DNA of 22,269 bases from Candidatus Iainarchaeum sp. (GTDB lineage: Archaea; Iainarchaeota; Iainarchaeia; Iainarchaeales; JAFCCJ01): contig JBDRHK010000054.1 of the NCBI GenBank assembly GCA_043816965.1, forward strand, positions 1 to 22,269, written 5' to 3'. Numbering within the stretch: the first letter of the stretch is position 1; every line of letters starts with the position of its first letter. The notes beneath the pieces are model-generated. The model searched no databases. It saw only the letters and a list, made by a program, of their open reading frames with translations, and was not told where the DNA came from. Below, piece by piece: positions 2,842 to 19,020 of the stretch. A program made the position numbers and the translations under genes.

Positions 2842-3711
2842 ATGGAAGAAGACGGATTTTTGAAAATAGCTCTTAAAGATTTAGAAGCTGCAGATATTCT
2901 TTACAAAAATAAATTATATCCTCAGGCACTTTATTTCTTACATCAAAGCTTAGAAAAAGTTCATAAAGCAGCATTAATTAATTTTGGCTGGATAGAAGAT
3001 GGGCATGAAATTGGCCACAACCTGAATTTATCCTTAGCGACGGTTAGTAAGATAGATGCATCTAAAAAAATAGATAAAGTTGCAGAGCATCTAACTGAAG
3101 ATGAAAAAAACAGGATAGAACGAAATCTGGTCACTATTGAGGAGTTCATGACTCCTGAGGATGTTAGGAAATTACATGAGGCCGTATTTCGTTGGAAATT
3201 ATTTCAGAAGGTTAAGTTAGAAAAAACCGATTTGAAATATATGAAAAAGGTTCTTTCAAGATTAGAAAAAGAGTTTAAAATTAAAGAAAGGCATAGAAAA
3301 ATATTTTTAAATTTCCTAGAGAAATATGAAAAGGCGATTGCAAAAAAAGACATAAATTCAAAATCGTTCAATAAACTGCAGGATAGTCTTTTTAAAGAAA
3401 TTAAGAAATATTTCTTTTTTCATGCAGGCTATCAATTTTACGTCATATATCTTTTGGTGCCCTTGTTGCCAAGTTCGGCTTCTTTAAGATATCCGAATAA
3501 TAATCCCTTGGATACTTACAACGAATCCTCCCCAGTGATTAAAGTCTTTGGTGAATTATCAAAGCACATAAGAGCCGCCATTGACTGTTTCAGTATCTTC
3601 TTTGATTTTGTTAGCTCTTTTTCTAGGTTCAGAAAAGATTATGAAAAAAAGGCAGCCCTTATGGCTTCCAGAGAAACGCCACGGCCTGCAAAAGAAAACC
3701 GAGAAAAATAA
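2842..3711 (+). CDS. HEPN-domain protein with long helical insertion
   Basis: N-terminus ALKDLEAADILYKNKLYPQALYFLHQSLEKVHKA...GH and C-terminal LRYP are typical of PF05168-type HEPN. Confidence 0.75.
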   Translation: MEEDGFLKIALKDLEAADILYKNKLYPQALYFLHQSLEKVHKAALINFGWIEDGHEIGHNLNLSLATVSKIDASKKIDKVAEHLTEDEKNRIERNLVTIEEFMTPEDVRKLHEAVFRWKLFQKVKLEKTDLKYMKKVLSRLEKEFKIKERHRKIFLNFLEKYEKAIAKKDINSKSFNKLQDSLFKEIKKYFFFHAGYQFYVIYLLVPLLPSSASLRYPNNNPLDTYNESSPVIKVFGELSKHIRAAIDCFSIFFDFVSSFSRFRKDYEKKAALMASRETPRPAKENREK

Positions 3712-4490: not shown

Positions 4491-4605
4491 AAGTTCAAAA
4501 TTTGCACAAAAACCCCTGTTTGGAATCCAAATTGTAATCCCTTTATGTGCAAAGGCAAATTTTACGAAAGATTTATTAATATCTATAGCTATTATGTTCT
4601 GTTAT

Positions 4606-4737
4606 ATGTCACACAGTAAAAAAGTAACAACCATTATGATAAGCCCAAAAACCAGGGATAATCTCAAAGATCTTGGAAAAAAAGGAGAAACGTACGAAGA
4701 AATAGTCGTGCGCCTCATAAAAGCGTATATTAAATAG
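4606..4737 (+). CDS. Small ribbon-helix-helix protein, archaeal antitoxin/CopG-like (43 aa)
   Basis: Manual translation MSHSKKVTTIMISPKTRDNLKDLGKKGETYEEIVVRLIKAYIK*; RHH pattern TTI.IS..T...L..LG.KGETY..I..RL; TTTATTAA at 4572-4579. Confidence 0.8.
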   Translation: MSHSKKVTTIMISPKTRDNLKDLGKKGETYEEIVVRLIKAYIK

Positions 4738-4755
4738 TTTCCAACAAGATTATTA

Positions 4756-4832
4756 TGGCTCAGGGTATGTGGAACTGACGATGATACTGAGTGTCAACGA
4801 TGAAGAGAGATGGGCGGACTGAACCTGAGCCA
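4756..4832 (+). ncRNA. Box C/D-like sRNA; predicted guide for 16S rRNA C1402 (E. coli numbering)
   Basis: 9-bp terminal stem TGGCTCAGG (4756-4764)/CCTGAGCCA (4824-4832); CTGA boxes at 4775, 4787, 4819; C-type box ATGAAGA (4800-4806) + 12-nt guide GAGATGGGCGGA + box D CTGA. GAUGGGCGG pairs with conserved 16S CCGCCCGUC (1399-1407, one G-U). The 5' box C is not clearly identifiable. Confidence 0.6.
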
Positions 4833-4877
4833 AAAGCAAACCCAAGTCCATCATACATAGAGGGTCTAAGTGTTCAT

Positions 4878-4928
4878 CTGACGATGATACTGAGCGTCAG
4901 CGATGAAGAGAGATGGGCGGACTGAGGC
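4878..4928 (+). repeat. Second copy of the 48-nt sRNA body joined to the cassette-type right flank GGC; first array junction
   Basis: 4878-4925 matches 4775-4822 at 46/48 positions; contains hairpin CTGACG/CGTCAG; ends CTGA-GGC like the cassette sites; lacks the terminal stem. Confidence 0.85.
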
Positions 4929-4995
4929 GAAATATCCTAAACAGATCAATTAGTGACAAGGACTTTTCACGTTTCCTTCTTCTATCGCAATAAAA

Positions 4996-5667
4996 TTATT
5001 TTGTTTTAAGTATAGTCAAAACTCCTGATTCTTCATAAAAGTATTTTCCTGGTTCTTTAAGTAAGAACTTAATATTTTTCAGATTAGGTAAATTAAATTT
5101 TCCCTTCCCATCAAAACCTATATATCTGTCAATTACTATTCTGCCACCTTTTTCAAGAAGAGGAATATAATTTTTTACTAATGAATCAATAACATCGCGG
5201 CGGGCACTAACGCGAGGTATAATTATTAAGTGGAATTTCCCGATGTCTTTTGAAGGGGGCCTTAACAAGTTAATATTCTTTTTTTTCATCAACCCCTGCT
5301 CGACCCACAAAAAAACTTTCTTGACCAACCTTGGCCCTGTGTCTCTTCCTTTCTCCGGGTAATCAATATCTCCAATAACATAATTTTTGGGATGCAAACC
5401 ATAATTCTTAATCAAATGTTCTGCAAGTCTGCCACTTTGAGCGCCAATTTCAAGAACCTTAACCTTATCTGGCCCACCAACTAATTCAGACAATTCATGG
5501 ATCCTAGAATCAAGTGACATAACTTTCATTAGAAACGAAATTTTTGCAGAGAATCTTCCAGTCAAATTGTCAGGGTGTCTGCGCCAAGGATACCGTCTTC
5601 GGAGGTTCTCCTCCTGGGCTTCGCCTCCCAATTCGGGCCTATGACGTTTTTGACGGTTTGAACCCAT
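4996..5667 (-). CDS. Class I SAM-dependent methyltransferase-like protein (cassette 1, inverted)
   Basis: KVLEIGAQSG motif I, acidic GDID, FHLII strand and LLEKGGRIVI. ATG at 5667 preferred over TTG 5679 because TTTATATT (5691-5698) lies about 24 nt upstream. Confidence 0.65.
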   Translation of the reverse strand: MGSNRQKRHRPELGGEAQEENLRRRYPWRRHPDNLTGRFSAKISFLMKVMSLDSRIHELSELVGGPDKVKVLEIGAQSGRLAEHLIKNYGLHPKNYVIGDIDYPEKGRDTGPRLVKKVFLWVEQGLMKKKNINLLRPPSKDIGKFHLIIIPRVSARRDVIDSLVKNYIPLLEKGGRIVIDRYIGFDGKGKFNLPNLKNIKFLLKEPGKYFYEESGVLTILKTK

Positions 5668-5763
5668 AAACAAAAACAAATCTCAAACTAAATATAAATA
5701 ATTCGGGAAGTTCAAACCCCTATTTATACATTTTTATCCCCCATTTTCCCATGGTAACTAACT

Positions 5764-5797
5764 CCTCATCTTTCGGCTAAGATGGGCGGACTGAGGC
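5764..5797 (+). repeat. Cassette boundary site
   Basis: CCTCATCTTTCGGCTAAGATGGGCGGACTGAGGC. Confidence 0.95.
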
Positions 5798-5800
5798 TAT

Positions 5801-5841
5801 TGTTCACTTATTGTAAACATTATGTTTATAAATAGTTAACA
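5801..5841 (+). promoter_or_regulatory. Promoter/operator of the MNT-HEPN cassette
   Basis: TTTATAAA TATA box embedded in four GTWWAC-like boxes at 11-bp spacing (5801, 5812, 5823, 5834); conserved at 12718-12758. Confidence 0.6.
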
Positions 5842-5855
5842 TAATAATATTAACT

Positions 5856-6410
5856 ATGAATAGACTACCCAAGCTTTTAACGCCTTTTAATTTAAAAATT
5901 CTTGAGATGCTTATTGATGAAAACATTTCTGTTAGGGATTTGGCAAAAAAAATTAAATGTTCTCCCGCCAAAATAACGCAATTCATTAAATTATTCAAAA
6001 AAGATAATTTAATCAAGACCAGTAAAGAAAAGAACAAGAAGATTCTAATTTTAAATAAAGAAAACCCGGTAATAAGGCAAATTATTTCCCTGCTATTTAT
6101 TGACAGAATTGTCACATCAAAAACTTTTTCCGGGCTGAAAAAGAATGCAAAATCAATCGGTGTTTATGGAAGTGTTGTTGAAGGCAGTTTAGACAAGAAA
6201 AGCGATATTGACCTTTGGGTTCTATCTGACATAAAAACTCCCCTGGTTGATGCAGGCAATTTAAGGATAAAGCTGAGTGAGGAGATCGGAAGAGAGGTAA
6301 GTATAAAATTTTTTACGCCCAAAGACATTAATAATCTTAAAAAGAAGGATGAAATATTTTACAACGAGATTGAATATAAATCAAAAATAATATATGGTGA
6401 AGGCTTTTGA
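5856..6410 (+). CDS. HTH-fused minimal nucleotidyltransferase (MNT) antitoxin, copy 1
   Basis: N-terminal wHTH (SVRDLAKKIKCSPAKITQFI); GS-x10-DxD motif GSVVEGSLDKKSDID. Confidence 0.9.
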   Translation: MNRLPKLLTPFNLKILEMLIDENISVRDLAKKIKCSPAKITQFIKLFKKDNLIKTSKEKNKKILILNKENPVIRQIISLLFIDRIVTSKTFSGLKKNAKSIGVYGSVVEGSLDKKSDIDLWVLSDIKTPLVDAGNLRIKLSEEIGREVSIKFFTPKDINNLKKKDEIFYNEIEYKSKIIYGEGF

Positions 6411-6847
6411 AAAAGAGTAAAGTTGATGAATGCTTTGAACAAGGTTTGCTAAAAAGGATAAAACCTAATTTGAAGTATGCGGAGCAAAGTATCAAACAGG
6501 CAGAACATTTCTTGGATGAAGCACAGGAGTTAATAGAAAGAGAAATCAAGGATATGGCATTCATTGCCATTTATAGTGCATCCTTTCACGCCGCAAGAGC
6601 ATTGCTTTTTAGGGACGGAATAAAAGAAAGGAGCCATTACTGCGTTAGTAAATACCTTGAAGAGAAATATACTGGGAAAGAACTTATCAGCATGAGGCAG
6701 GCAATTATTCTGGATTCATTAAGGGACAAAAGGAATTCAATACAATATTCCCTCGAAAGAACAGAACTGGAAGAAGACCTGAATGAAATTTACGATGAAA
6801 TTGAATGCTTTCTTGAAAAAGTAAAAGAGATTATTAAAAAGAATTAA
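6407..6847 (+). CDS. HEPN-domain protein, MNT partner, copy 1
   Basis: AFIAIYSASFHAARALL...ERSH...RNSIQY; 4-bp TTGA overlap with the MNT stop. Confidence 0.9.
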   Translation: MKKSKVDECFEQGLLKRIKPNLKYAEQSIKQAEHFLDEAQELIEREIKDMAFIAIYSASFHAARALLFRDGIKERSHYCVSKYLEEKYTGKELISMRQAIILDSLRDKRNSIQYSLERTELEEDLNEIYDEIECFLEKVKEIIKKN

Positions 6848-6849
6848 CG

Positions 6850-6880
6850 CCTCATCTCAGGACGGAAAATACGGGGACTA
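6850..6880 (+). repeat. Decayed cassette boundary site
   Basis: CCTCATCT starts 2 bp after the HEPN stop, the same offset as the intact site at 13767, followed by CAGGACGG...GGACT. Confidence 0.65.
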
Positions 6881-6883
6881 AAA

Positions 6884-7561
6884 ATGATTCGAAAGTCTTC
6901 AAGAAGAAATATTAGAAATCAAGGTTACTCTTTTAGAGGAACTACATCTGATTTGCAGGGATTATCTTCAGGCGCTGTTTTTAAAAATTTCAGAAAAGCA
7001 GGACTCCCAGTAAAACCAATTGAAGCCAAAGCAACTGCTGAAAATCTAAAATCCGCGGCGCTTGAAGCAGCCAAAAAACTGGCAAACGGAGAATCCGGAT
7101 TTTTTCATTTTGAAACTCCTCGAGGCACAATGCCGTGTATAATTATGAAAAAGGGAGATAAACTCCATATTAATCAGGCTCGTTTGAGACATAATATTGT
7201 AAAGTCTAGTGCCCCTTTTGAACACTTGATGAACATATTGAAAAGAGGTTTTAGGGGAGACTATCCTCCGAATGTCGTGATTAAAGATGGGAAAAGGCCT
7301 ATGCCTAATCTGTCAGCAAATGCTTATGAAAACGCAACAGTTGCAGGAGATAGATATACTCTCGAGATGGTTTCTCCAGTGACTGATTTGGATAAGGAAT
7401 CAATGCATGCGTTCGTCAAAAATGCCGACAACTCACAAATATCTGGCGTAATAGTCAAAATTGATTCAAAAACACCTAAACCCAAGATTGAAGAAAAAAC
7501 TAGATTTTATCAAGCACTTTCAGAAGAGTACGGAGTTCCTTTCCATATAAAAGTAGGGTAA
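6884..7561 (+). CDS. Hypothetical basic protein, possible ADP-ribosyltransferase-like fold (cassette 3)
   Basis: 225-aa ORF filling the inter-site interval; LRHN...HLMNILKRGF loosely resembles the H..L..IL..G start of H-Y-E type ART folds. Function is tentative. Confidence 0.6.
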   Translation: MIRKSSRRNIRNQGYSFRGTTSDLQGLSSGAVFKNFRKAGLPVKPIEAKATAENLKSAALEAAKKLANGESGFFHFETPRGTMPCIIMKKGDKLHINQARLRHNIVKSSAPFEHLMNILKRGFRGDYPPNVVIKDGKRPMPNLSANAYENATVAGDRYTLEMVSPVTDLDKESMHAFVKNADNSQISGVIVKIDSKTPKPKIEEKTRFYQALSEEYGVPFHIKVG

Positions 7562-7586
7562 ATATTTTTTCAGAATATCTAGAAGT

Positions 7587-7620
7587 CTTCATCTTTCGGG
7601 CAAGATGGGCGGACTGAGGC
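7587..7620 (+). repeat. Cassette boundary site
   Basis: CTTCATCTTTCGGGCAAGATGGGCGGACTGAGGC. Confidence 0.95.
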
Positions 7621-7623
7621 GTC

Positions 7624-7641
7624 GTTATATTTAAATATAAC
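7624..7641 (+). promoter_or_regulatory. Palindromic operator overlapping the TATA box
   Basis: Perfect 18-bp palindrome GTTATATTTAAATATAAC; identical at 10677-10694. Confidence 0.65.
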
Positions 7642-7669
7642 CTTGTATATACATTATTAGTGATGCGAA

Positions 7670-7939
7670 TTGAATTCCCTGAAAGGCCGTTTCCTGTGGA
7701 GCAGGCATGCGCTGAGAGAGGCAGTCGAGGATTCTTTGAAGCCAAGTGATGTGGAAAAGTCACTGTCCAAATGCATGGTGATGGAAAGCGGGCTGGATAA
7801 GGAGAAGGCAGTTTGCAAAGTAGAAAACATTTATTGCACAGTAATATTCGCAAGGATGAAATTTGGAATTAAAATCATAACCTGCTGGAAGAGCAGCAAT
7901 TGGGAAATCAAGGTCTATGATGCGGAGGTGAAAGGATGA
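7670..7939 (+). CDS. DUF4258-like (RelE/BrnT-fold) putative toxin, copy 1
   Basis: WSRHALRE...L.PSDVEKSL...IKIITCW pattern; ATGA overlap with the downstream zinc-finger gene. Confidence 0.75.
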   Translation: MNSLKGRFLWSRHALREAVEDSLKPSDVEKSLSKCMVMESGLDKEKAVCKVENIYCTVIFARMKFGIKIITCWKSSNWEIKVYDAEVKG

Positions 7940-8268
7940 AATGTGTTTGCGGAGCCAACATGGAAAAGATAAAAACCGAGATGGACTTCCATGACGGGCA
8001 GGTTATAGTTAGAAACGTTACTGCGTTCTACTGCCCCAAATGCAAAGAGGAGTTATTCGACTCCAAGGAAGGGGACAGGATTTTTGGCCAGGTCTCGAAA
8101 CTTAATCTTGTGCAGCCATTCGAATCAAGGAAAAAAATCACAAAGGTCGGCAACAGCTTTGCCATTCCGGTTTCCAAGGAAATTGCCGACTACATGCAGA
8201 TAAAAAAAGGCGGCGACATAAAGATAAAAGTGCAGAACCAAAAAAGGCTTGTTGTTGATTTGGCATAA
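7936..8268 (+). CDS. YgiT/MqsA-type zinc finger fused to AbrB/MazE DNA-binding domain (putative antitoxin), copy 1
   Basis: MKCVCG...VRNVTAFYCPKCKE; C-terminal RKKITKVGNSFAIPVSKEIA..MQIKKG. Confidence 0.85.
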   Translation: MKCVCGANMEKIKTEMDFHDGQVIVRNVTAFYCPKCKEELFDSKEGDRIFGQVSKLNLVQPFESRKKITKVGNSFAIPVSKEIADYMQIKKGGDIKIKVQNQKRLVVDLA

Positions 8269-8270
8269 TT

Positions 8271-8304
8271 CCTCATCTTTCAGTCAGGATGGGCGGACAG
8301 AGGT
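8271..8304 (+). repeat. Cassette boundary site
   Basis: CCTCATCTTTCAGTCAGGATGGGCGGACAGAGGT, 2 bp after the stop codon. Confidence 0.9.
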
Positions 8305-8347
8305 ACATAAAAACCTTTTTATGTAGTTTATCGCATACTTTTATCAG

Positions 8348-8566
8348 GTGAAAGAGTTGAAATTGTCAGCCATAATTAGTAGGGAAGATGGGGAATATGT
8401 TGCCTTGTGCCCTGAACTGGATGTTGCTTCCCAGGGTGATTCTATAGAGGATGCTCTGGCTAATTTGAAGGAAGCGGTAGAATTGTACTTGGAAGACGAG
8501 AAGGACATAAAACTTTCTGAGGCAAGCCCCTTTGTTACGACTTTTGAAGTGAACGCCAGTGCCTAA
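8348..8566 (+). CDS. hicB: HicB-family antitoxin (short form)
   Basis: EDGEYVALCPELDVASQGDSIEDALANLKEAVELYLE. Confidence 0.92.
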   Translation: MKELKLSAIISREDGEYVALCPELDVASQGDSIEDALANLKEAVELYLEDEKDIKLSEASPFVTTFEVNASA

Positions 8567-8789
8567 GTTTCCGGTTCTCTCAGGCAAGGAAGTAATCAAA
8601 GCACTGGAAAAAGCAGGCTTTAAGTTTGTCAAGCAGAGGGGAAGCCATGTAAAGCTCAGGAATCTTGATTTAGGAGAAAAGAAGACAGTAATTGTCCCGC
8701 TCAAGCCTGTAATCAGGACCGGCACGATGAAATCAATTCTTAGGCAAGCGCACTTAACCTTCGAAGAATTCCAGAAGTTCTTGAAATAA
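8559..8789 (+). CDS. hicA: HicA-family mRNA interferase toxin
   Basis: PVLSGKEVIKALEKAGF..VKQRGSHVKL...VIVP...IRTGTMKSILRQA. Confidence 0.92.
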   Translation: MPKFPVLSGKEVIKALEKAGFKFVKQRGSHVKLRNLDLGEKKTVIVPLKPVIRTGTMKSILRQAHLTFEEFQKFLK

Positions 8790-8822
8790 TGTGGGTAATC
8801 AACAAGTGTTGTGAATGTCCAA

Positions 8823-8855
8823 CTGACCAATGACGATAGATGGGCGGACTGAGGC
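8823..8855 (+). repeat. Boundary site of the sRNA type
   Basis: CTGA-CCA-ATGACGA-TAGATGGGCGGA-CTGA-GGC (D'/C'/12-nt guide/D); lacks the CCTCATCTT arm. Confidence 0.85.
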
Positions 8856-8914
8856 GAAAACTGATTGAATAGATTTAAAATCAATTTAGTAACATTTATT
8901 GTGAGGACTCACAA

Positions 8915-9541
8915 ATGAATTGGAAAGATTCAATGCGACCCTTTCAAATGTTATGGGGAAAGTCTACAGAAACTTTTTTGATTGTATTTATTGGGTTAAT
9001 TACATTCGTTTTTTTAGTTCTTACTCTTTCTTCTTTTTTTGGCCTTATTTTTGACCCCGTTTCAGTTCCAGAAATGCAAGGAACTTCTTCTCAAATGGTG
9101 ATTCAATTATTTTCATTTAAAGCGGGCTTATTTTTATTCATGTTTTTGATTTTACTTCCTTTTTTGTTTATGTTCTTTTTTTCTTGGAAACCCCCTTTTT
9201 TGGAAATTAATGAAAAAGGAATAAAAGTACCAAATTATCTATCGCTTATGATTCCAAACAAAAGGCATTATTTTTTCAGTTGGCAAGACATATCTGAGAT
9301 TAATATATGGCGGCCTTCTGAAAGCCCTACCTCCGGCGATAAATTGGCAATGAAACACAAGACGTCTTTAGCATTTTTTGGGGGGCAAACAGCTGCACTG
9401 GATGTTGACCATGTTAGAATTTGTAAAGGCGATTTTTGTAAAACCCGGCTTATGAAAGATAAAAAAGGTTTCATTAATTCCTGTAAAATGTCTGGGATAG
9501 AATTTAAAGAAGAAAAAAGAAAATTAATTTATAAAAAATAA
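8915..9541 (+). CDS. Membrane protein, two TM helices plus soluble C-terminal domain (possibly bacterial PH-like; cassette 6)
   Basis: Two Phe/Leu-rich helices followed by LEINEKGIKV...FSWQDISEI. Confidence 0.7.
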   Translation: MNWKDSMRPFQMLWGKSTETFLIVFIGLITFVFLVLTLSSFFGLIFDPVSVPEMQGTSSQMVIQLFSFKAGLFLFMFLILLPFLFMFFFSWKPPFLEINEKGIKVPNYLSLMIPNKRHYFFSWQDISEINIWRPSESPTSGDKLAMKHKTSLAFFGGQTAALDVDHVRICKGDFCKTRLMKDKKGFINSCKMSGIEFKEEKRKLIYKK

Positions 9542-9570
9542 TCTTGCAACAATTAATGCCGTAACTAATT

Positions 9571-9604
9571 CCTCATCTTTCGGGCAAGATGGGCGGACTG
9601 AGGC
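9571..9604 (+). repeat. Cassette boundary site
   Basis: CCTCATCTTTCGGGCAAGATGGGCGGACTGAGGC. Confidence 0.95.
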
Positions 9605-9645
9605 AAAAAGGAAAAACTTATATTCTTGTTAAACATTATTTTTTC

Positions 9646-10554
9646 ATGGGAGATTTACTTTGCATTGGGATTCCTGCGAGGAATGAGGAAGAATCCATTG
9701 AGGCTACTATACGGTCTATTGTTGAATCAGATGCATGGAAAGATTCCTCAAAGTCAGGCAGGGAGATGATTGTCTGCGTGAACGACTCAACTGACAGAAC
9801 TGCCGAAATTGTTAGAAATCTCCAAAAAGAAATTCCTGAAATCAAGCTTATCGAAAATAAGGAACCTGGAAAAAACCTGGCTATCAATACCATTATCAAA
9901 AACTCCAGCAGAAAAGCAGATGTTATCTATTTCTCTGATGCAGATGTTGTTGTTGCGAAGGATTCGATAGGCAAAGTTGCAGGAGAAGTAAGACGAGACA
10001 GAAAGATTGATTTCGCTGCGCCAGTTCCTGTTCCTACTTCTGTTTTTACCGAAACCAAAAAAAGGAGACCTGTTGCAGCATTCTATGCCGAAGGTTCAGA
10101 GATAGGTATAAAACATAAAATCTATAGGCTAACTGGCATGGGCTTTGCAGCGAGGAAGAGTGTCTTAGTTAAAAAGCCTCTGCCTGAGCACCCTTATGTA
10201 GGCGATGACAGGTATATCAACCTTGAATATAAAGGCAGAATAAAAGTTCTTTATGATGCCGAAGTATATTTCAGGCCCCCCAGCCTGAAGGACCATATGA
10301 GGCAAAGGATTAGGCATGCAGTTGAAAGGCGAACCCTCTTTAAGATTCGTCCGGATTTGAGGGAACCCTATATTTCTGAGGCTAAAAAGATACGTTCAAG
10401 GGAGATCAGCCATTTTAGGGAACTTAGCCTGAAGGGCAAGTTAGGTTTCCTTCCGATAGCGGCTGCCGAGCCTCTTGAAAAATTAATAGCAAAGTTCAAG
10501 AGAGCTGGGACCTGGTCAAAGATACAAAGCACAAAAGCAAGAAGGAAAGTTTGA
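9646..10554 (+). CDS. Glycosyltransferase family 2 (cassette 7)
   Basis: IGIPARNEE, VNDSTDRT, GKNLAIN, FSDAD (DxD), GDD, RQRIRH. Start moved from 9589 (an ATG inside the repeat) to ATG 9646, downstream of a TATA at about 9618. Confidence 0.9.
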   Translation: MGDLLCIGIPARNEEESIEATIRSIVESDAWKDSSKSGREMIVCVNDSTDRTAEIVRNLQKEIPEIKLIENKEPGKNLAINTIIKNSSRKADVIYFSDADVVVAKDSIGKVAGEVRRDRKIDFAAPVPVPTSVFTETKKRRPVAAFYAEGSEIGIKHKIYRLTGMGFAARKSVLVKKPLPEHPYVGDDRYINLEYKGRIKVLYDAEVYFRPPSLKDHMRQRIRHAVERRTLFKIRPDLREPYISEAKKIRSREISHFRELSLKGKLGFLPIAAAEPLEKLIAKFKRAGTWSKIQSTKARRKV

Positions 10555-10637
10555 ACTATGTCCTGAGTTCAATAATATTGTTTACAATAATGGCATTCTA
10601 TCCCTATACTTTATCTCTCAACCAGCTGTAACTAACT

Positions 10638-10671
10638 CCTCATCTTTCGGCTAAGATGGGCGGACTGAGGC
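10638..10671 (+). repeat. Cassette boundary site
   Basis: Identical to 5764-5797, including upstream GTAACTAACT. Confidence 0.95.
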
Positions 10672-10722
10672 GACGAGTTATATTTAAATATAACATTGTA
10701 CATACATTATTAGTGATGCGAA

Positions 10723-10992
10723 TTGAATTCCCTGAAAGGCCGTTTCCTGTGGACCAGGCATGCGCTGAGAGAGGCAGTCGAGGATTCTTTGAAGCCAAGT
10801 GATGTGGAAAAGTCACTGTCCAAATGCATGGTGATGGAAAGCGGGCTTGGCAAGGAGAAGGCAGTCTGCAAAGTAGAAAACATTTATTGCACAGTAATAT
10901 TCGCAAGGGTGAAATTTGGGATTAAAATCATAACCTGCTGGGGAAGCAGCAATTGGGAAATAAATGCTTATGATGAGGAGGTGAAAGGATGA
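10723..10992 (+). CDS. DUF4258-like putative toxin, copy 2
   Basis: 7 aa differences from 7670-7939 by manual comparison. Confidence 0.75.
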   Translation: MNSLKGRFLWTRHALREAVEDSLKPSDVEKSLSKCMVMESGLGKEKAVCKVENIYCTVIFARVKFGIKIITCWGSSNWEINAYDEEVKG

Positions 10993-11321
10993 AATGTGTT
11001 TGTGGAGCCAACATGGAAAAAATAAAAACTGAGATGGACTTCCATGACGGGCAGGTCATAGTTAGAAACGTTACTGCGTTCTACTGCCCAAAATGCAAAG
11101 AGGAGTTATTTGACTCCAAGGAAGGGGACAGGATTTTTGGCCAGGTCTCGAAACTTAATATTGCACAATCGTTTGAATCCCGGAAGAAAATAACAAAGGT
11201 CGGCAACAGCTTTGCAATTCCGGTGTCCAAAGAAATTGCGGACTATATGCAGATAAAAAAGGGCGAAGACATAAAGATAAAAGTGCAAAACCAAAAAAGG
11301 CTTATTGTTGATTTGGCATAA
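10989..11321 (+). CDS. YgiT zinc finger-AbrB putative antitoxin, copy 2
   Basis: 5 aa differences from 7936-8268 by manual comparison. Confidence 0.85.
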   Translation: MKCVCGANMEKIKTEMDFHDGQVIVRNVTAFYCPKCKEELFDSKEGDRIFGQVSKLNIAQSFESRKKITKVGNSFAIPVSKEIADYMQIKKGEDIKIKVQNQKRLIVDLA

Positions 11322-11323
11322 CC

Positions 11324-11357
11324 CCTCATCTTTCAAGCAGGATGGGCGGGCTGAGGC
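11324..11357 (+). repeat. Cassette boundary site
   Basis: CCTCATCTTTCAAGCAGGATGGGCGGGCTGAGGC, 2 bp after the stop codon. Confidence 0.92.
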
Positions 11358-11439
11358 TATAAAAGACTTAAAATTAACGAAATATTAATATTTAGTCAGT
11401 TATAGGTATATTTATTAAGTTTTTGGCGCGGTTTATAGT

Positions 11440-12666
11440 ATGGTTTCACGTTTGGATGTTTTTTTGGTTGCGGGGCTCTATCCTGAAATTTCATGCGCAG
11501 ATATAGTCAGGAAAATAGGTAAGAAACAAACATCCTATAATGCCGCATATAACCTTCTCATGAGCCTGAAAAATGAAGGCCTGGTTACAGAGTCAAAAGA
11601 ACGGTTCAGCGTGTCAGAAACAAAGAAAGCCAGCATTCTCCTCAAATTGGTTTACTTCTGCTTTAAGAATGGCATTGACTACAACAAGATTATTACAGAA
11701 AAAGCAGCCGAATTCGTGAAACTTGGTCTTGGGGAAGGCAAAATAACAGGTTTGCCATTTGACACAAAAACAGTCAAGAGAATTGTCCGTCATCTTTCAA
11801 AAAATGGCCTTGCTATTGTAGAGTCAAAAAGACCGTTTTTGTGCAGAATTGTCCCATCACAGTTTACTGAATTGCTCGCGGAATATTTTTTCGGGAAAAT
11901 CAAGGTCAAATGCCCGTTACTCGTTGATTGCCTTGACGAAGGCTCTGTTGACTCCAAGCTTCAAAAACACTTTTCGGAATTCAAGGGAATTGAAAAACAA
12001 AAATTTGATTTTGACGAAATAGGATTCATTTACGTGAGTCTTTCACTCGAAGGAAATACCCTGACTTTATCAGAAACCGAAAGAATGATTAGGCAAAATA
12101 TAGCTCCTGCCTCAAAACCAGCGAAAGACGCGCAACAGGTTCTTGATTACAAAAAGGCTCTTGACGGCTTCATTTTTTCCAAAAGCGCAATAACTGAAGA
12201 CTCTATTCTTGACTTCCACAGGACTGCGATGAATTCATTGGCAGCTGGTGCTGGGCAATTTAGGATAGATAATGTGAGGATAAAAGACAACCCGAATTTT
12301 AAAACCCCGGAATGGCGGGAACTTCCCGGCTTGTTAAGGACTTTTTTCGAGAATATTAAAACCCAAAAAAAGGAAAAAACCACGGCTGTCGGGATAGTTG
12401 AAGAGGCTGCTTTTTTGCACAATGAATTTCAGCGCATGCACCCATTCATTGACGGCAACAGTAGGACATCAAGAGCAATATTCCTAAAAGTGCTGACCCA
12501 AAACAATTTTCCCCTGATAAAAATACCTGTGGGTTTTTCCGACCAATACATGCTGCTCACAAAACTAAGCGAAAAAAGAGACGACAAAAAGTTCGCCTTG
12601 CTGATGAAACAGATTGCCCTTGAAAACCTGAAACACTTGGCAAAAAAAATCGAGCATGAATTCTGA
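11440..12666 (+). CDS. Fic-family protein with N-terminal wHTH region (cassette 9)
   Basis: Fic motif HPFIDGNSRTSR; autoinhibitory SLSLEGN motif; GQFR; N-terminal helix-turn-helix-like region. Confidence 0.9.
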   Translation: MVSRLDVFLVAGLYPEISCADIVRKIGKKQTSYNAAYNLLMSLKNEGLVTESKERFSVSETKKASILLKLVYFCFKNGIDYNKIITEKAAEFVKLGLGEGKITGLPFDTKTVKRIVRHLSKNGLAIVESKRPFLCRIVPSQFTELLAEYFFGKIKVKCPLLVDCLDEGSVDSKLQKHFSEFKGIEKQKFDFDEIGFIYVSLSLEGNTLTLSETERMIRQNIAPASKPAKDAQQVLDYKKALDGFIFSKSAITEDSILDFHRTAMNSLAAGAGQFRIDNVRIKDNPNFKTPEWRELPGLLRTFFENIKTQKKEKTTAVGIVEEAAFLHNEFQRMHPFIDGNSRTSRAIFLKVLTQNNFPLIKIPVGFSDQYMLLTKLSEKRDDKKFALLMKQIALENLKHLAKKIEHEF

Positions 12667-12680
12667 CACGCGAAATATTT

Positions 12681-12714
12681 CTTTACCTTTCGGGCAAGAT
12701 GGGCGGACTGAGGC
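12681..12714 (+). repeat. Cassette boundary site (left arm degenerate)
   Basis: CTTTACCTTTCGGGCAAGATGGGCGGACTGAGGC. Confidence 0.92.
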
Positions 12715-12772
12715 TATTGTTTACTTATTGTAAACATTATGTTTATAAATAGTTAACATAACAATACTAACT

Positions 12773-13327
12773 ATGAACAGAATACCCAAGCTTTTAACCC
12801 CTTTCAACCTAAAGATTTTTGAGCTGCTTATTGATGAAAACATCTCTGTTAGGGATTTGGCAAAAAAAATCAAATGTTCCCCGGCCAAAATAACGCAGTT
12901 CATTAAATTATTCAAAAAAGACAATTTAATTAAAACCAGCAAAGAAAAGAACAGGAAGATTCTAATTTTAAATAAAGAAAACCCGGTAATAAGGGAGATT
13001 ATCTCCCTGTTGTTTATTGATAAAATTGTCACGTCAAAAACTTTTTCCGGGCTGAAAAAGAATGCAAAATCAATCGGCGTCTATGGGAGTGTTGTTGAAG
13101 GCAGTTTAGACAAGAAAAGCGATATCGACCTTTGGGTTCTGTCCGACATAAAAATTCCCCTGGTTGATGCAGGCAATTTAAGGATAAAGATGAGTGAGGA
13201 ACTCGGGAGAGAGGTAAGTATAAAATTTTTCACGCCCAAAGACATCAATAACCTTAAAAAAAAGGATGGAATATTTTACAACGAGCTTGAATATAAATCA
13301 AAAATAATATGTGGTGAAGGATTTTGA
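12773..13327 (+). CDS. HTH-MNT antitoxin, copy 2
   Basis: 12 aa differences from 5856-6410 by manual comparison; GSx10DxD intact. Confidence 0.9.
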   Translation: MNRIPKLLTPFNLKIFELLIDENISVRDLAKKIKCSPAKITQFIKLFKKDNLIKTSKEKNRKILILNKENPVIREIISLLFIDKIVTSKTFSGLKKNAKSIGVYGSVVEGSLDKKSDIDLWVLSDIKIPLVDAGNLRIKMSEELGREVSIKFFTPKDINNLKKKDGIFYNELEYKSKIICGEGF

Positions 13328-13764
13328 AAAAGAGCAAGATTGACGAATGCTTTGAACAAGGTTTGCTAAAAAGGATAAAACCTAATATGAAGTATGCGGA
13401 GCAAAGTATCAAACAGGCAGAACATTTCCTGGATGAAGCACAGGAGTTAATAGAAAGGGAAATCAGGGATATGGCATTCATTGCCCTGTATAGTGCATCC
13501 TTTCACGCCGCAAGGGCATTGCTTTTTAGGGACGGAATAAAAGAAAGGAGCCATTACTGCGTTAGTAAATACCTTGAAGAGAAATATACGGGGAAAGAAC
13601 TTATCAGCATGAGGCAGGCAATTATTCTGGATTCATTAAGGGACAAAAGGAATTCAATACAATATTCCCTCGAAAGAACAGAAATGGAAGAAGACCTGAA
13701 TGAAATTTACAATGAAATTGAAGGCTTTCTTGAAAAAGTAAAAGAGATTCTTAAAAAGAATTAA
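13324..13764 (+). CDS. HEPN-domain protein, copy 2
   Basis: 8 aa differences from 6407-6847 by manual comparison. Confidence 0.9.
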   Translation: MKKSKIDECFEQGLLKRIKPNMKYAEQSIKQAEHFLDEAQELIEREIRDMAFIALYSASFHAARALLFRDGIKERSHYCVSKYLEEKYTGKELISMRQAIILDSLRDKRNSIQYSLERTEMEEDLNEIYNEIEGFLEKVKEILKKN

Positions 13765-13766
13765 CC

Positions 13767-13800
13767 CATCACCTATCGGCTAAGATGGGCGGACTGAGGC
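13767..13800 (+). repeat. Cassette boundary site (left arm degenerate)
   Basis: CATCACCTATCGGCTAAGATGGGCGGACTGAGGC, 2 bp after the stop codon. Confidence 0.92.
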
Positions 13801-13828
13801 GCTGGAATTTTTTGAGTTTGAATAAAGG

Positions 13829-13859
13829 ATATATTTAAATATATAGCCGGCTATATATT
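13829..13859 (+). promoter_or_regulatory. TATA box with overlapping palindromic operators
   Basis: ATATATTTAAATATAT (13829-13844) and perfect 22-bp AATATATAGCCGGCTATATATT (13838-13859), just before the RHH ATG. Confidence 0.65.
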
Positions 13860-13863
13860 ATTC

Positions 13864-14079
13864 ATGGCTACTTTAAGTGCAGATGTTACCTCTCAAATGG
13901 TCAGATGGATTGACGAAAAAGTCACTGCCGGCTTTTATAAAAGCAGGAGCGAGGTAATTAGAGAATTGCTTAGGGAGAAGATAACCGGGGAAAATTATTC
14001 CAAGGCCGCCCTGTCTGAAAAAGTCTTAAGAAAGATTTGGGATAATGAGAATGATGAAGTTTGGTCTTCTTATTTGTGA
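13864..14079 (+). CDS. Ribbon-helix-helix antitoxin (CopG/ParD-like)
   Basis: WIDEKVTAGFYKSRSEVIRELLRE; acidic/aromatic tail IWDNENDEVW; directly upstream of a PemK toxin. Confidence 0.85.
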   Translation: MATLSADVTSQMVRWIDEKVTAGFYKSRSEVIRELLREKITGENYSKAALSEKVLRKIWDNENDEVWSSYL

Positions 14080-14082
14080 TTT

Positions 14083-14412
14083 GTGATGAAGCAATTGAGT
14101 GTTGTTTTAGCCAGATTTCCATTCACTAACCAGATTGATTACAAGATAAGGCCTGCCCTGATAGTTTCAAATGACAAGTTTAACAAGGCACATAATTTCT
14201 GCTGGGTCTGCCCAATAACTTCCAAAACCACTTTAAAAGAATTTGAAGTTGAAATTCCTGCAAGTGAATTCAGTGGCGAACTGAAAACCAGGAGTTATGT
14301 CCGCGTTGATACAATTGCCTCAATGGAGAAAAGCCTGTTTCTCAAGGAAATAGGCAAAATTAGTTTCGAGTTATTTAAAAGGCTGAAAAAACAAGTGATA
14401 CTGAATTTGTGA
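14083..14412 (+). CDS. mazF: PemK/MazF-family endoribonuclease toxin
   Basis: VLARFPFTNQIDYKIRPALIVSND...VCPITS...SYVRVDTI...KEIGKI; the start may be ATG 14086. Confidence 0.9.
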   Translation: MMKQLSVVLARFPFTNQIDYKIRPALIVSNDKFNKAHNFCWVCPITSKTTLKEFEVEIPASEFSGELKTRSYVRVDTIASMEKSLFLKEIGKISFELFKRLKKQVILNL

Positions 14413-14434
14413 ATTAAAAAAAGGCGAATTAGCC

Positions 14435-14468
14435 CCTCATCTTTCAAGCAGGATGGGCGGACTGAGGC
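14435..14468 (+). repeat. Terminal cassette boundary site
   Basis: CCTCATCTTTCAAGCAGGATGGGCGGACTGAGGC; last base overlaps the stop of the convergent gene. Confidence 0.95.
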
Positions 14469-14860
14469 TATTTGAATATTAATGAAAACAGGTTCAGCCA
14501 GTCGGCAATCAGGAAGATTATTATTGAGAGTATGATAATTTTCAGTAAATTTATGCCGTGCTTTTTTTCCTCTTCCTTTTTGGATTCGCCCTCGCCAGAT
14601 TCTTTTTCTTCCTGTTCCGCTTCATCAGCCTCTTCGCGCTGGAAGGATTCAACCATCTCCTGCAGGGCATCAATTTCCTTTTCCAAATCCCATCTAACGG
14701 CTTTTAATATGACAACAGTAAGGGCGAAAGAATAAAGGTAGGAAAACAGGTTGCTAACAACAATCTGGTCGACAAGGGAAACCATCAATACCATTATTAC
14801 GGCAAAACTGAGAATTTCCCCTGGAGTGTTTAACTCCAAAACTTGCCTGAATTTGCCCAT
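14468..14860 (-). CDS. Hypothetical membrane protein (3 TM, acidic loop)
   Basis: Hydrophobic helices flanking an E/K-rich loop; TTTAATATA about 25 nt upstream. Confidence 0.7.
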   Translation of the reverse strand: MGKFRQVLELNTPGEILSFAVIMVLMVSLVDQIVVSNLFSYLYSFALTVVILKAVRWDLEKEIDALQEMVESFQREEADEAEQEEKESGEGESKKEEEKKHGINLLKIIILSIIIFLIADWLNLFSLIFK

Positions 14861-14954
14861 AGAAACAAGTTATCCCGAAGAGATATATTAAATTAACGAT
14901 TTGGCATAAAACTCACCAAAAGCTTTTTACATTCTTTTCCCCCAAATTAATACT

Positions 14955-15287
14955 ATGTGGGCAGATGCGATAATTGTGATTGCCTTTACGGCGATTTATT
15001 TCCTCAGCTCATTTAAGGGCCATAAGGAGAAGGAATATATCCTCCCGGCAATGTTTTTGGTTCTTGCATTGTTTTCCCTTGAGGAGCCCTATGTTTTTTT
15101 GTATGTCCTTGCGGCAGCTTTCGTGTTTTTAGGCCAAAGGGGAATGGGCAAGGGAAATGGCGGGAAAGAACCTGTTGAGGAAACAGAAGAGAATGAGGCT
15201 GGGGAAGAGGAAGAAATGGAAGAGGGAGCCGGTGAAGGGCACGGCGGCGGGCATGAGGAATCTGCACACGGCGCTGGCCACCACTGA
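14955..15287 (+). CDS. Small membrane protein with Glu/Gly/His-rich tail
   Basis: Three short hydrophobic segments, then EETEENEAGEEEE...GHGGGHEESAHGAGHH. Confidence 0.7.
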   Translation: MWADAIIVIAFTAIYFLSSFKGHKEKEYILPAMFLVLALFSLEEPYVFLYVLAAAFVFLGQRGMGKGNGGKEPVEETEENEAGEEEEMEEGAGEGHGGGHEESAHGAGHH

Positions 15288-15448: not shown

Positions 15449-16615
15449 GTGCCTTTTTCTGATTTGGGGATTTTTGTGCCAGAGGACAGATTAAACGGAG
15501 CCAAGAGCCTAATCCTAAAGATAGCCATAGGTGGCGCAATACTGGTTTTCCTTTACCTCTACGGCAGCCTTATTTGGGACCTACTATGGAACGGCTTTTT
15601 CACAAATGAGGGCTCTTTCCAGTCCTTTGTCCCGGTTCTCCTGAGCGTGCTTTTTTTCATCGTGGGCACGGAAATATTCCTAATACTAACCAGATATGTA
15701 ATCTCGAAATACCTTGAGAACAGGGGGAAAAAGAAGGAGATAAAGATTATACTGACCCTCTACACCTACCTTGTCTGGGGGGTTGTCGGGCTTTTCCTTA
15801 TCTCAACAATCTTCAAGGACATCGGTGCATTGCTCACTTCAATCGGCCTTATCGGTTTCGGAATCACTTTCGCCCTGCAGAAGCCGATACTGAATTTTGT
15901 GGGCTGGCTCACCATAGTGATAACAAAGCCATTTAACATCGGCGACAGGATAGAGGTTCAGGAGATAAGGGGGGATGTGCTTGGCATCCACACAATGTAC
16001 ACCACAATTCAGGGGACAAGGCTCAATTCCCATGAGAGGTCGGAGAAGATAATAACCCTCCCAAATGAGCTGATTCTGACAAATGCGATAATCAATTACT
16101 CAAAAAAGGGCGAAATCTATGCTGATGAGGTGATAGTTTCAATCACCTATGGGAGCAACTGGAGAAAGGCCTCAGAAATGCTTGCAAAGGTCACGAAGAG
16201 CGTAATTTCCAAATACTTTGCTGAGGGGGTGGGTAATGCCCAGTCCGACAAGAAATCATGGCAGGAGGCGATAGGCCTGCTCCAGGCGGCCTCAAAGAAA
16301 TTGCGCAGGGGTGTGTTTAAGGAATCGGTGAAGGAGAAAATAGACCTTATGAAATCCGCCGACAGCGTTGCCGAGGCGGAAATCCCTGAGCCGCAGATTC
16401 AAATGTCGCTGGCCGACTCATCCATAAACCTGAGCTCCCTCTATCATACCGACCTCCATTCAGTCAGGGTGACAAAGCATGAGATAACTAAGGCCTTCTA
16501 CGAGGAGGTTGAGAGGTCAAAGGACATCGAGATTGCATACCCGCACATGCAGCTTGTTTACGGGGACAATCTTCGGAGGGCCAATCCCAATGACATCCGC
16601 CAGAAAAAATTGTAG
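15449..16615 (+). CDS. mscS: Small-conductance mechanosensitive channel family protein
   Basis: GLIGFGITFALQKPILNFVG...KPFNIGDRIEV...GDV...TLPN...IINYS...IEIAYP. Confidence 0.92.
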   Translation: MPFSDLGIFVPEDRLNGAKSLILKIAIGGAILVFLYLYGSLIWDLLWNGFFTNEGSFQSFVPVLLSVLFFIVGTEIFLILTRYVISKYLENRGKKKEIKIILTLYTYLVWGVVGLFLISTIFKDIGALLTSIGLIGFGITFALQKPILNFVGWLTIVITKPFNIGDRIEVQEIRGDVLGIHTMYTTIQGTRLNSHERSEKIITLPNELILTNAIINYSKKGEIYADEVIVSITYGSNWRKASEMLAKVTKSVISKYFAEGVGNAQSDKKSWQEAIGLLQAASKKLRRGVFKESVKEKIDLMKSADSVAEAEIPEPQIQMSLADSSINLSSLYHTDLHSVRVTKHEITKAFYEEVERSKDIEIAYPHMQLVYGDNLRRANPNDIRQKKL

Positions 16616-18945: not shown

Positions 18946-19020
18946 TAGATAATAAGGTCCGTGCTAATTAATAATAGTTTTTGATTAAATTATTCTTATT
19001 AGAATTAAACGCCCTTAATG

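Follow-up and report, generated by a model that had tools for sequence, protein, structure and literature searches.

Integrative elements settle at the 3' ends of tRNA and tmRNA genes, where tandem accretion can produce stacks that include integrase-less, cis-mobilizable remnants (CIMEs). The attC sites of integron cassettes are imperfect hairpins of 57-141 bp with R'', L'', L' and R' boxes, of which R' reads GTTRRRY. A third kind of array, TIGR-Tas, consists of tandem interspaced guide RNAs accompanied by Nop-domain effectors. Here we describe an array of small gene cassettes in a contig of Candidatus Iainarchaeum sp. (JBDRHK010000054.1, assembly GCA_043816965.1), whose 22,269 nucleotides make up the whole stretch analyzed and are referred to below as the window. 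The array stands behind the gene of a box C/D small RNA (sRNA), and we consider it probable that this gene carries guides to 16S rRNA and that its 3'-terminal 17 bp act as the crossover core for site-specific, integron-like capture of cassettes. An earlier note, made from the letters of this DNA alone, had taken the core of the array to be the guide and box D of a C/D-like sRNA aimed at position C1402 of 16S rRNA, and the gene to be a landing pad for cassettes.

The core repeat and its sRNA gene

The repeat GATGGGCGGACTGA occurs 12 times in the window (10 exact copies and two with one mismatch), always on the plus strand, from 4809 to 14465, with starts at 4809, 4912, 5781, 7604, 8288, 8839, 9588, 10655, 11341, 12698, 13784 and 14452. 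Shuffled sequence is expected to hold 0.07 copies, and 12 were reached in 0 of 100 shuffles. The source genome (1.34 Mb, 86% complete) has every one of its 12 copies on this contig and none elsewhere. The full core of 17 bp, GATGGGCGGACTGAGGC, comprises the 9 nt of the guide core, a single additional base, box D and GGC, the 3-bp half of a terminal stem, and is the final 17 bp of the sRNA gene in its common form. By alignment, the 12 units sort into three that are sRNA-like (4757-4831, 4878-4928 and the sixth repeat, r6, at 8823-8855) and nine of type A. The type-A unit is 39 bp long, reads TAACTCCTCATCTTTCGGCTAA followed by GATGGGCGGACTGAGGC, and begins at or just past the stop codon of the preceding open reading frame (ORF). 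Its left arm is pyrimidine-rich and conserved (consensus GTAAnTAAnnCYTCATCTTTCnnnnR), and partly complementary to the start of the core. The intervals between units, 103-1823 bp in length, are mostly coding, and each core is followed by AT-rich, TATA-like sequence, as read by eye.

Unit 1 (4757-4831, plus strand, as are all features of the sRNA units) is an intact double-guide box C/D sRNA gene. Its 5' stem GGCTCAGG (4757-4764) pairs with the 3' stem CCTGAGCC (4824-4831) through 8 Watson-Crick pairs plus a G4765/A4823 mismatch, which the earlier note had counted as a stem of 9 bp. Between the stem halves lie a variant box C, AUGUGGA (4767-4773), a 13-nt D' guide (4774-4786), the D' box CTGA (4787-4790), a short internal hairpin (4791-4798), box C' ATGAAGA (4800-4806), the 12-nt D guide GAGATGGGCGGA (4807-4818) and box D CTGA (4819-4822). 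The spacing of ATGAAGA, 12 nt and CTGA had been given correctly from the start, and the parse of the boxes needed amendment in the light of the relatives' alignment: ATGAAGA is box C', not box C, and ACGATGA lies inside the D' guide and is not a box. The weak alignments returned by Rfam likewise treat this ACGATGA as a box. Unit 2 (4878-4928), which anchors the array, is a copy that is missing box C and the 5' stem. It runs from a D' guide that begins at 4878 through D' (4890-4893), C' (4903-4909), the D guide (4910-4921) and box D (4922-4925) to GGC (4926-4928), and has its orthologue in the sRNA of G001, a genome of the same genus (94.5% identity over 55 nt). A search of the window for the missing 3' stem partner of unit 2 gave no convincing copy at the array end.

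A covariance model built from 23 relatives, with the window sequence left out, recognizes unit 1 over its full length and with its stem paired (81.7 bits, E 1.4e-21). The same model gives unit 2 56.9 bits, with 4 of the 8 stem pairs broken, r6 28.8 bits, with the D' guide deleted, and the type-A units 8-19 bits. Rfam has 0 matches at the gathering score in the whole window, the best below it being sR2 (21.2 versus 42). The G001 copy draws 16-21 weak Rfam matches, to C/D families only, and none at gathering (sR2 29.6 versus 42; sR12 17 versus 38). A tRNA scan of the window found none.

Relatives were drawn chiefly from a set of 196 genomes of the same order (labeled G with a number; L denotes loci and C contigs), whose record titles read Candidatus Iainarchaeum or Diapherotrites. 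Single copies of the sRNA in these relatives consist of a 5' stem, RUGAUGA, a 13-nt D' guide with the invariant TGACGATGA, a D' box that is either CUGA or a degenerate form of it, a short hairpin, a C' box, the 12-nt guide nnGAUGGGCGGA, CUGA and a 3' stem. The pattern of D' guide, D guide and box D is present in 36 of the 196 genomes (41 matches), with GAU in the guide in all and GAC in none. A scan of one genome per prokaryotic species met the two-guide pattern at 34 places, the titles of which name Candidatus Iainarchaeum, Diapherotrites or unclassified archaeal metagenome-assembled genomes (MAGs), apart from four labeled otherwise. The exact core occurs in 37 of the 196 genomes, as a single copy in 24 and as two or more in 13, and cores with one mismatch lengthen several arrays past their exact-match counts. 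When metagenomes were scanned with the 17-mer core, 78 loci were analyzed, of which 19 are true units and the other 59 are taken to be chance matches; in viral contigs, neither this core nor the patterns for type A and for the sRNA had any match (0 each).

An alignment of 28 copies shows the same internal D'/C' layout throughout. The 8-pair terminal stem is paired in 79.4% of cells, versus 49.9% in shuffles, and all eight pairs have changed on both sides; the stem covariation score is 0.726, versus 0.22 in shuffles, with 0 of 500 as high, and versus 0.10-0.32 with a slid partner. The hairpin between D' and C' also varies with compensation, as in GAGCGCAAGC, GACCGAAAGG and GAUUCCUUCGCCGGAA. Box C reads xUGAUGA in 21 copies and has U at position 4 (RUGUGGA or GUGUUGA) in six, the last row being the truncated unit 2. 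The form with U at position 4 recurs at window 4767-4773, L035, L061, L068 and L051/L052; that of L035 is the variant box C of unit 1 itself, enclosed by a different, compensating stem. Wherever the 3' flank is intact, the non-canonical box C is accompanied by a GC-rich terminal stem of 7-9 bp. The shared layout and the covarying stems argue for a real family of double-guide sRNAs that has not previously been curated.

Both guides find a target in 16S rRNA. In all four relatives with both an sRNA and a 16S sequence, the D guide GAUGGGCGG forms 9 of 9 Watson-Crick pairs, with no G-U, with CCGCCCAUC, at one 16S site. The target in all four reads CCGCCCATC, with A in place of the usual G1405, and the guide has its U because of this A; the earlier note had asked whether this position was G or A, and its count of eight Watson-Crick pairs and one G-U gives way to nine Watson-Crick pairs. 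It was right in placing the fifth base upstream of box D opposite the C1402 equivalent, which holds in all four, and by the N+5 rule the D guide is predicted to direct methylation to that nucleotide. The D' guide CUGACGAUGA pairs at 10 of 10 positions, all Watson-Crick, with helix 34 (UCAUCGUCAG), again at one 16S site in each of the four relatives; the helix-34 base opposite its fifth position we take to be approximately E. coli 1061. The 23S rRNA offers weaker matches only, with a mismatch or G-U pairs. The guide of U43/snR70 was given in the earlier note as GACGGGCGG, and the plant snoR07 consensus in Rfam contains GAUGGGCGGACUGA. Passages of PMC11542601 record 2'-O-methylation of the C1402 equivalent for bacteria (E. 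coli), P. abyssi (Cm1369), yeast, human and plants, and passages of PMC3511168 name U43/snR70 as its eukaryotic guide and propose archaeal sR12 as the counterpart. Taken together, the conserved family, the covarying stems and the 9 of 9 pairing in relatives uphold the identification of the core as the guide and box D of a C/D sRNA aimed at C1402.

The source genome encodes the proteins of a C/D particle: neighboring genes on contig C28 specify fibrillarin (E 8.2e-79) and Nop5 (E 3.6e-44), and an L7Ae-family protein (E 7.7e-27) is present as well. Unit 1, the intact long-stem copy, would presumably supply the sRNA function in this genome. Upstream of it, at 4594-4737 on the plus strand, lies a 47-aa ORF of Pfam family DUF7557 (E 2.2e-9), a conserved upstream neighbor of the long-stem sRNA variant. 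Homologues (tblastn, 56-66% identity) occur at five loci, L035, L198, L061, L045 and L147, with L198 representing the same place as L035; in L035, L061 and L045, the three checked by DNA homology (window ~4568-4832), the ORF stands just upstream of the sRNA. Behind a DUF7557 paralogue at C19:6616-6744 of the source genome, GCGATGAA...CTGA motifs occur in a stretch that might be another C/D-like RNA. Further upstream in the window are a 289-aa protein with an N-terminal HEPN domain (2842-3711) and a 188-aa ORF of no known family, in a region that has no counterpart beside the G001 sRNA.

The inserted array and its cassettes

An empty site is present in G001. Window 4876-4930 matches the G001 sRNA (94.5%), and G001 resumes 8 bp later with sequence corresponding to window 14924-15145 and then 16624-18995 (84%). 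As the G001 sRNA is joined directly to the sequence that starts at 14924 in the window, approximately 10 kb (4931-14923) must have been inserted at the 3' end of the sRNA. The 17-bp core, a direct repeat of the 3' end of the RNA gene, recurs at every junction. In all 12 contigs where the two kinds of unit occur together, the one of sRNA type comes first at the 5' side and the others lie downstream of it in the same orientation, and in the six genome arrays headed by a canonical sRNA (G027, G090, G093, G095, G097 and G098) GGC restores a GCC/GGC stem. A layout like that of the window, with an intact long-stem sRNA and then a GGC-type unit, is found in G135. The earlier note had asked whether relatives without the array keep a single sRNA here. 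The single sRNA and empty site of G001, together with the polarity in 12 of 12 contigs and a tyrosine-integrase element at the same position in one relative, speak for the sRNA gene as a landing pad.

This element belongs to one other genus, represented by G125, G126, G128 and G130. In G126 and an identical metagenome contig (L111), purE is followed by the sRNA, GGCTGATT and the gene of a 414-aa tyrosine integrase (Phage_integrase, E 4.3e-21). In G125, a type-A unit, GGCTGATT and ilvD come, in this order, after genes for a type IV secretion system (T4SS) pilin, PrgI, VirB4/TraG and a DDE transposase. The uninterrupted order purE-sRNA-ilvD can be pieced together from two members, G128 (purE beside the sRNA) and G130 (the sRNA, then ilvD). 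The junctions in G126/L111 and G125 therefore indicate that an integrase-bearing, conjugation-type element attaches at the sRNA, its far end bearing the type-A arm of the cassettes. The conjugation genes in G125 (L069, G125:C20, 9428-15431; TrbC/VirB2 pilin, PrgI, VirB4/TraG ATPase) are of bacterial type in a DPANN genome, and lie by the type-A junction and ilvD.

Three tyrosine recombinases are encoded in the source genome, all on other contigs: XerA, one on C81 and one on C74. The integrase of L111/G126 is 32% identical to that of C74, beside which there is no RNA gene. That of C81 (C81:15008-16379) is a 411-aa protein with a C-terminal, zinc-ribbon-like CxxC pair, located 60 bp after tRNA-Glu, and looks like part of a separate, tRNA-targeting integrated element. 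Tyrosine recombinases as such are found in 186 of the 196 genomes of the order and are therefore uninformative. A Y1 HUH transposase is present in three of five array genomes (in neither G000 nor G135) and a serine recombinase in one of the five.

A cassette is counted from one 17-bp core to the next, and most close with a 39-bp type-A unit. By this count the insert consists of 10 cassettes (551-1823 bp) and a 455-bp remnant, and 9 of these 11 segments are coded on the sRNA strand. The same cassettes recur in four other families. The family-2 glycosyltransferase (GT2) cassette, the sixth in the window, has a counterpart of 92.7% identity (over 954-973 bp) in G027, a genome of a different family, where it comes first behind the sRNA. 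The Fic cassette, the eighth, is shared with G027 (86%), G095 (77%), G093 (76%) and G050 (74%), with homology starting at the first base past the core, and homologues of the HicBA cassette occur at five loci (76-80% identity). The GT2 and Fic identities to G027 exceed the 84% of housekeeping DNA between the window and its same-genus relative G001; cassette identity between families thus surpasses housekeeping identity within the genus, which points to a route of gene flow in reduced genomes. The congeners G093 and G095 have syntenic flanks (80-85%) and a nucleotidyltransferase/HEPN cassette in common (92%), and G093 has one additional cassette beside the sRNA. In G095, the Fic cassette sits exactly between two GGC-ended cores, where G093 has a single core. 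Units in G050 stand before AGCC or AAACAC, which in other sRNA alleles form the 3' half of the stem, and this is what one would expect of a flank that moves together with its cassette. A third kind of cassette end occurs at L077 (G050:C139, 2480-2720), where a short GC hairpin (GCCGGACGAAACCGGC or CGCGAACGAAATCGCG) stands right before AATGGGCGG in two tandem units of ~95 bp.

Most of the cassettes carry toxin-antitoxin pairs. All segments are given here on the plus strand. Cassette 1 (4929-5797, 869 bp) has a 227-aa ORF on the minus strand (4996-5679), with no Pfam family and a weak, methyltransferase-like NCBIfam match below cut-off, and ends in a type-A unit at 5759-5797. Cassette 2 (5798-7620; repeat families D1 and D4) encodes a winged helix-turn-helix (wHTH) nucleotidyltransferase (5856-6410) and a HEPN protein (6407-6847), matching Pfam Polbeta/NTP_transf_2 and HEPN, followed by a 225-aa ORF of no known family (6884-7561) and a type-A unit (7582-7620). 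Its first two genes are duplicated in cassette 9 (12715-13800; 88%, family D3), which closes with a type-A unit at 13762-13800. Cassette 3 (7621-8304) holds an 89-aa ORF and a 110-aa ORF of zinc-finger/AbrB-like, antitoxin type (YgiT-type zinc finger, E 1.8e-7, with weak MqsA/MazE matches), and its type-A unit (8266-8304) has the core variant GGACAGAGGT; cassette 7 (10672-11357) is its duplicate (94%, family D2), with a type-A unit at 11319-11357 and the core variant GGGCTGA. In cassette 4 (8305-8855), a HicB-like gene (8348-8566) precedes hicA (8559-8789; HicA_toxin, E 4.7e-17), and the closing unit is of an sRNA-like type B (r6, 8823-8855), made up of CTGA, CCA, ATGACGA, a 12-nt guide, CTGA and GGC. 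Cassette 5 (8856-9604) carries a 208-aa ORF (8915-9541) of no Pfam or NCBIfam family and a type-A unit at 9566-9604.

Cassette 6 (9605-10671) encodes the GT2 (Glycos_transf_2, E 6.9e-21), with a type-A unit at 10633-10671. The ORF as called (9589-10554) begins at an ATG within the core (GATGGG), and G027 yields the same 321-aa call; translation probably begins at a site downstream of this ATG. Cassette 8 (11358-12714) carries a Fic/DOC protein gene (11440-12666; Fic, E 1.1e-14) and a type-A unit at 12676-12714. Cassette 10 (13801-14468) pairs a ribbon-helix-helix (RHH) antitoxin (13864-14079; RHH_1) with a MazF/PemK toxin (14083-14412; PemK_toxin, E 9e-19) and ends in a type-A unit at 14430-14468. 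The terminal segment (14469-14923, 455 bp) has a 130-aa ORF on the minus strand, and synteny with G001 begins at 14924. Where toxin-antitoxin cassettes begin, immediately past the core, there are perfect palindromes (7624-7645, 10677-10700 and 8305-8330; for example GTTATATTTAAATATAAC and TACATAAAAACCTTTTTATGTA), which are probably operators for autoregulation by the antitoxin.

Beyond the array, an MscS-type channel gene (15449-16615) is also extra with respect to the syntenic position in G001. The conserved downstream neighbors (16621-18945) encode a PRK04334-type hypothetical protein, a NIL-ferredoxin and HcyBio (homocysteine biosynthesis), a methanogen-type sulfur-incorporation set in a DPANN genome.

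Mechanism and alternative readings

In the mechanism we propose, small cassettes without an integrase of their own would each bear one attachment site, composed of arm and core. A circular cassette would recombine with the resident core by means of a tyrosine integrase acting in trans; the insertion would rebuild the guide, box D and GGC half-stem of the gene upstream and place a second core at the far end of the cassette, while the displaced 3' flank would shift to the far end of the insert. Repeated capture would then give the 10 cassettes and the remnant (4929-14923) behind the truncated sRNA copy, unit 2. The integrase would be of the same kind as that found at the sRNA in G126/L111, the intermediates presumably circular, and the crossover is placed inside the 17 bp. 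Among the sequencing runs listed for this DNA none is of RNA; three of DNA, in which 8-18% of the sampled words occur, as low-depth contigs, gave no joints, and so speak neither for nor against circles or excision.

Several observations weigh against this mechanism. There is no recombinase among the 33 ORFs of the window, nor at any further array locus that was looked at; an integrase beside the sRNA is seen in the G126/L111 element only. That link is one independent case, with its two ends on separate contigs that are joined by 24-bp identity and congener synteny only. Relatives of the C74 integrase (E <= 1e-28, a threshold chosen after the data had been seen) are present in 9 of 14 array-bearing and 7 of 17 sRNA-only genomes, with no clear association. 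The proximal end of the array is unexplained by the simple model, in that unit 1 is complete, down to a 3' stem of its own, and unit 2 is without box C; synteny with G001 breaks 5' of 4876, the upstream flank of G001 mapping to the start of contig C100 of the source genome. At the distal end, no unit closes the terminal segment (14469-14923). Thermodynamically, the type-A hairpin is weak, with z-scores of +0.5 to -2.0 and energies no better than those of shuffles, whether computed as RNA or DNA and on either strand. K-turn rules hold that the A which AUGUGGA is without is required for L7Ae binding, which tells against the variant box C of unit 1. Finally, the source genome has no assembled 16S rRNA, and guide pairing is known from relatives alone; G001 likewise has no assembled 16S.

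As an alternative, the host's own XerA could carry out the recombination, in the manner of Xer-exploiting elements and dif modules, on a dif-like 11-6-11 site made up of the arm, a spacer of 6 bp and the first bases of the core. When the arm is compared with the reverse complement of the first 11 bp of the core, 8 of 11 positions do match, with a variable spacer of 6 bp in between, and the array-bearing genomes G053 (93% complete) and G098 (79% complete) have only one tyrosine recombinase, at the level of XerA. Set against this, the sRNA itself has no left half-site, the inverted repeat is lost in the arm variant CCTTGGTCT, the spacer differs between sites, and a dedicated integrase is found at the site in G126. 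We regard a role of XerA in place of a dedicated integrase as unlikely.

We also think it unlikely that the repeats rather than the genes are mobile, as repetitive extragenic palindromic (REP)-like, miniature inverted-repeat transposable element (MITE)-like or terminator-like sequences in a toxin-antitoxin island, or that the array has grown by unequal homologous recombination and duplication. Two cassette types are indeed duplicated within the array (94% and 88%), units directly follow stop codons, and reshuffling by homologous exchange between repeats of 17-39 bp is plausible. Mobile repeats do not fit with 12 of 12 copies confined to one 10-kb stretch of a 1.34-Mb genome in one orientation, nor with a stretch that is missing entirely at the G001 sRNA. 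Genes with no relation to each other are delimited from core to core, four other families have the same units, the homology setting in at the first base past the core, and congeners differ by exactly one unit, all of which favors the cassette as the unit of movement.

A more speculative possibility, which we hold to be improbable, is that the sRNA is active rather than a passive landmark. Cassette transcripts would end in a hairpin in which the arm masks the anti-16S guide and box D, and these ends would be recognized by the C/D ribonucleoprotein (RNP) or the sRNA for capture, processing or silencing; or the long-stem, non-GGC alleles would be host escape variants that keep methylation and deny the integrase its site. 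Were this true, DPANN archaea would possess an RNA-guided or RNA-gated platform for gene capture.

It is very unlikely that the array is a classical integron without its integrase, that is, a cluster of attC sites lacking an integron integrase (CALIN). The small, toxin-antitoxin-rich cassettes are suggestive of one. The units are 39 bp long with an identical core of 17 bp, and no RYYYAAC...GTTRRRY boxes, the attC consensus, are seen by eye at the cassette junctions. There is no intI in the window, the primary site is an sRNA gene and not an attI beside intI, and AT-rich, TATA-like sequence follows each core. Arrays without intI are described as common in archaeal MAGs in passages of PMC9668308, the main text of which, supplementary tables aside, has 0 occurrences of Iainarchaeota or Diapherotrites.

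Equally remote is RNA-guided or RNP-assisted recombination, in which the sRNA or a particle of L7Ae, Nop5 and fibrillarin pairs with core DNA or a cassette end and marks or catalyzes insertion. The core does coincide exactly with guide and box D, and the arm can pair with the guide at the start of the core, though only with G-T pairs allowed: 85% of cells pair, versus 44-62% when slid, and many of the pairs are G-T, which suits a top-strand or RNA structure over a DNA inverted repeat. A match between an RNA and its own gene is, however, a given and hence uninformative. The sRNA has no linked nuclease or recombinase domain, the single Nop-domain gene of the genome is Nop5 beside fibrillarin, and the integrase at the sRNA in G126/L111 is a conventional tyrosine integrase. 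The suggestion that the C/D RNA takes part in the recombination itself accordingly finds no support here; it had leaned in part on IS110 transposases, which are not known to be Nop-domain proteins.

Relation to described systems

If cassettes are captured as we propose, the C/D sRNA gene would be a third class of small-RNA gene, after tRNA and tmRNA, among the docking sites of integrating elements; a literature search found no report of a C/D sRNA gene serving as an attachment site. Its sequence is presumably held constant by the decoding centre, and it would therefore be a stable target. DPANN archaea with genomes of 1-1.5 Mb would, in this way, stockpile and exchange small cassettes (toxin-antitoxin, Fic, glycosyltransferase) in an integron-like manner. 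The locus also offers a clean case of guide-target co-variation, a guide U opposite 16S A1405, and concrete substrates for an archaeal integrase in the 17-bp core and the 39-bp cassette site.

As a guide RNA, the sRNA shares its target nucleotide with U43/SNORD43, snR70 and AtU43 (Rfam clan CL00059) and with archaeal sR12, according to passages of PMC3511168 and PMC11542601. It has the same GAUGGGCGGA-CUGA string as the plant snoR07 consensus in Rfam, and the box order and 12-nt spacing of archaeal sRNAs. It differs from curated C/D guides in the U opposite A1405, which is specific to the 16S of this order, in a second guide, to helix 34, that is fixed in all copies, and in the subset with a non-canonical box C and a long stem. 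TIGR-Tas arrays are comparable in their repeated, guide-like RNA motifs and a conceptual tie to the C/D RNP fold, whereas the spacers here are protein-coding cassettes of 0.5-1.8 kb, and the window has no Nop-domain effector, the genome having housekeeping Nop5 only.

Several features of the array are those of integrons. The intI/attI and attC features that define an integron are not found here, attC having been judged by eye against the box consensus. There is no intI beside the array, the primary site lies within an RNA gene, the sites are short, with an identical core of 17 bp as opposed to the 7-bp core and long imperfect hairpin of attC, and AT-rich, promoter-like sequence follows each core. 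Enrichment in toxin-antitoxin genes, cassettes common to distant hosts and the presence or absence of single cassettes are nevertheless shared, as is, with integrons that include the archaeal ones described in passages of PMC9668308, a one-directional array of small cassettes with one site at the 3' end of each.

The closest likeness is to elements that target tRNA and tmRNA genes. As in these, the insert carries a copy of the 3' end of the gene, which is thereby rebuilt, a direct repeat of the gene end stands at the far side, and several elements are stacked at one site, as in CIMEs. A tyrosine integrase beside the RNA gene, a further trait of such elements, is found in G126/L111 only, and neither in the window nor at other arrays. 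Unlike them, the target is the gene of a box C/D methylation-guide sRNA, and unlike genomic islands, the units are of 0.55-1.8 kb, with one to three genes and a common 39-bp site, which brings them nearer to integron cassettes in scale. The system works as do the elements that target tRNA genes, combined with a stacking of cassettes in the style of integrons.

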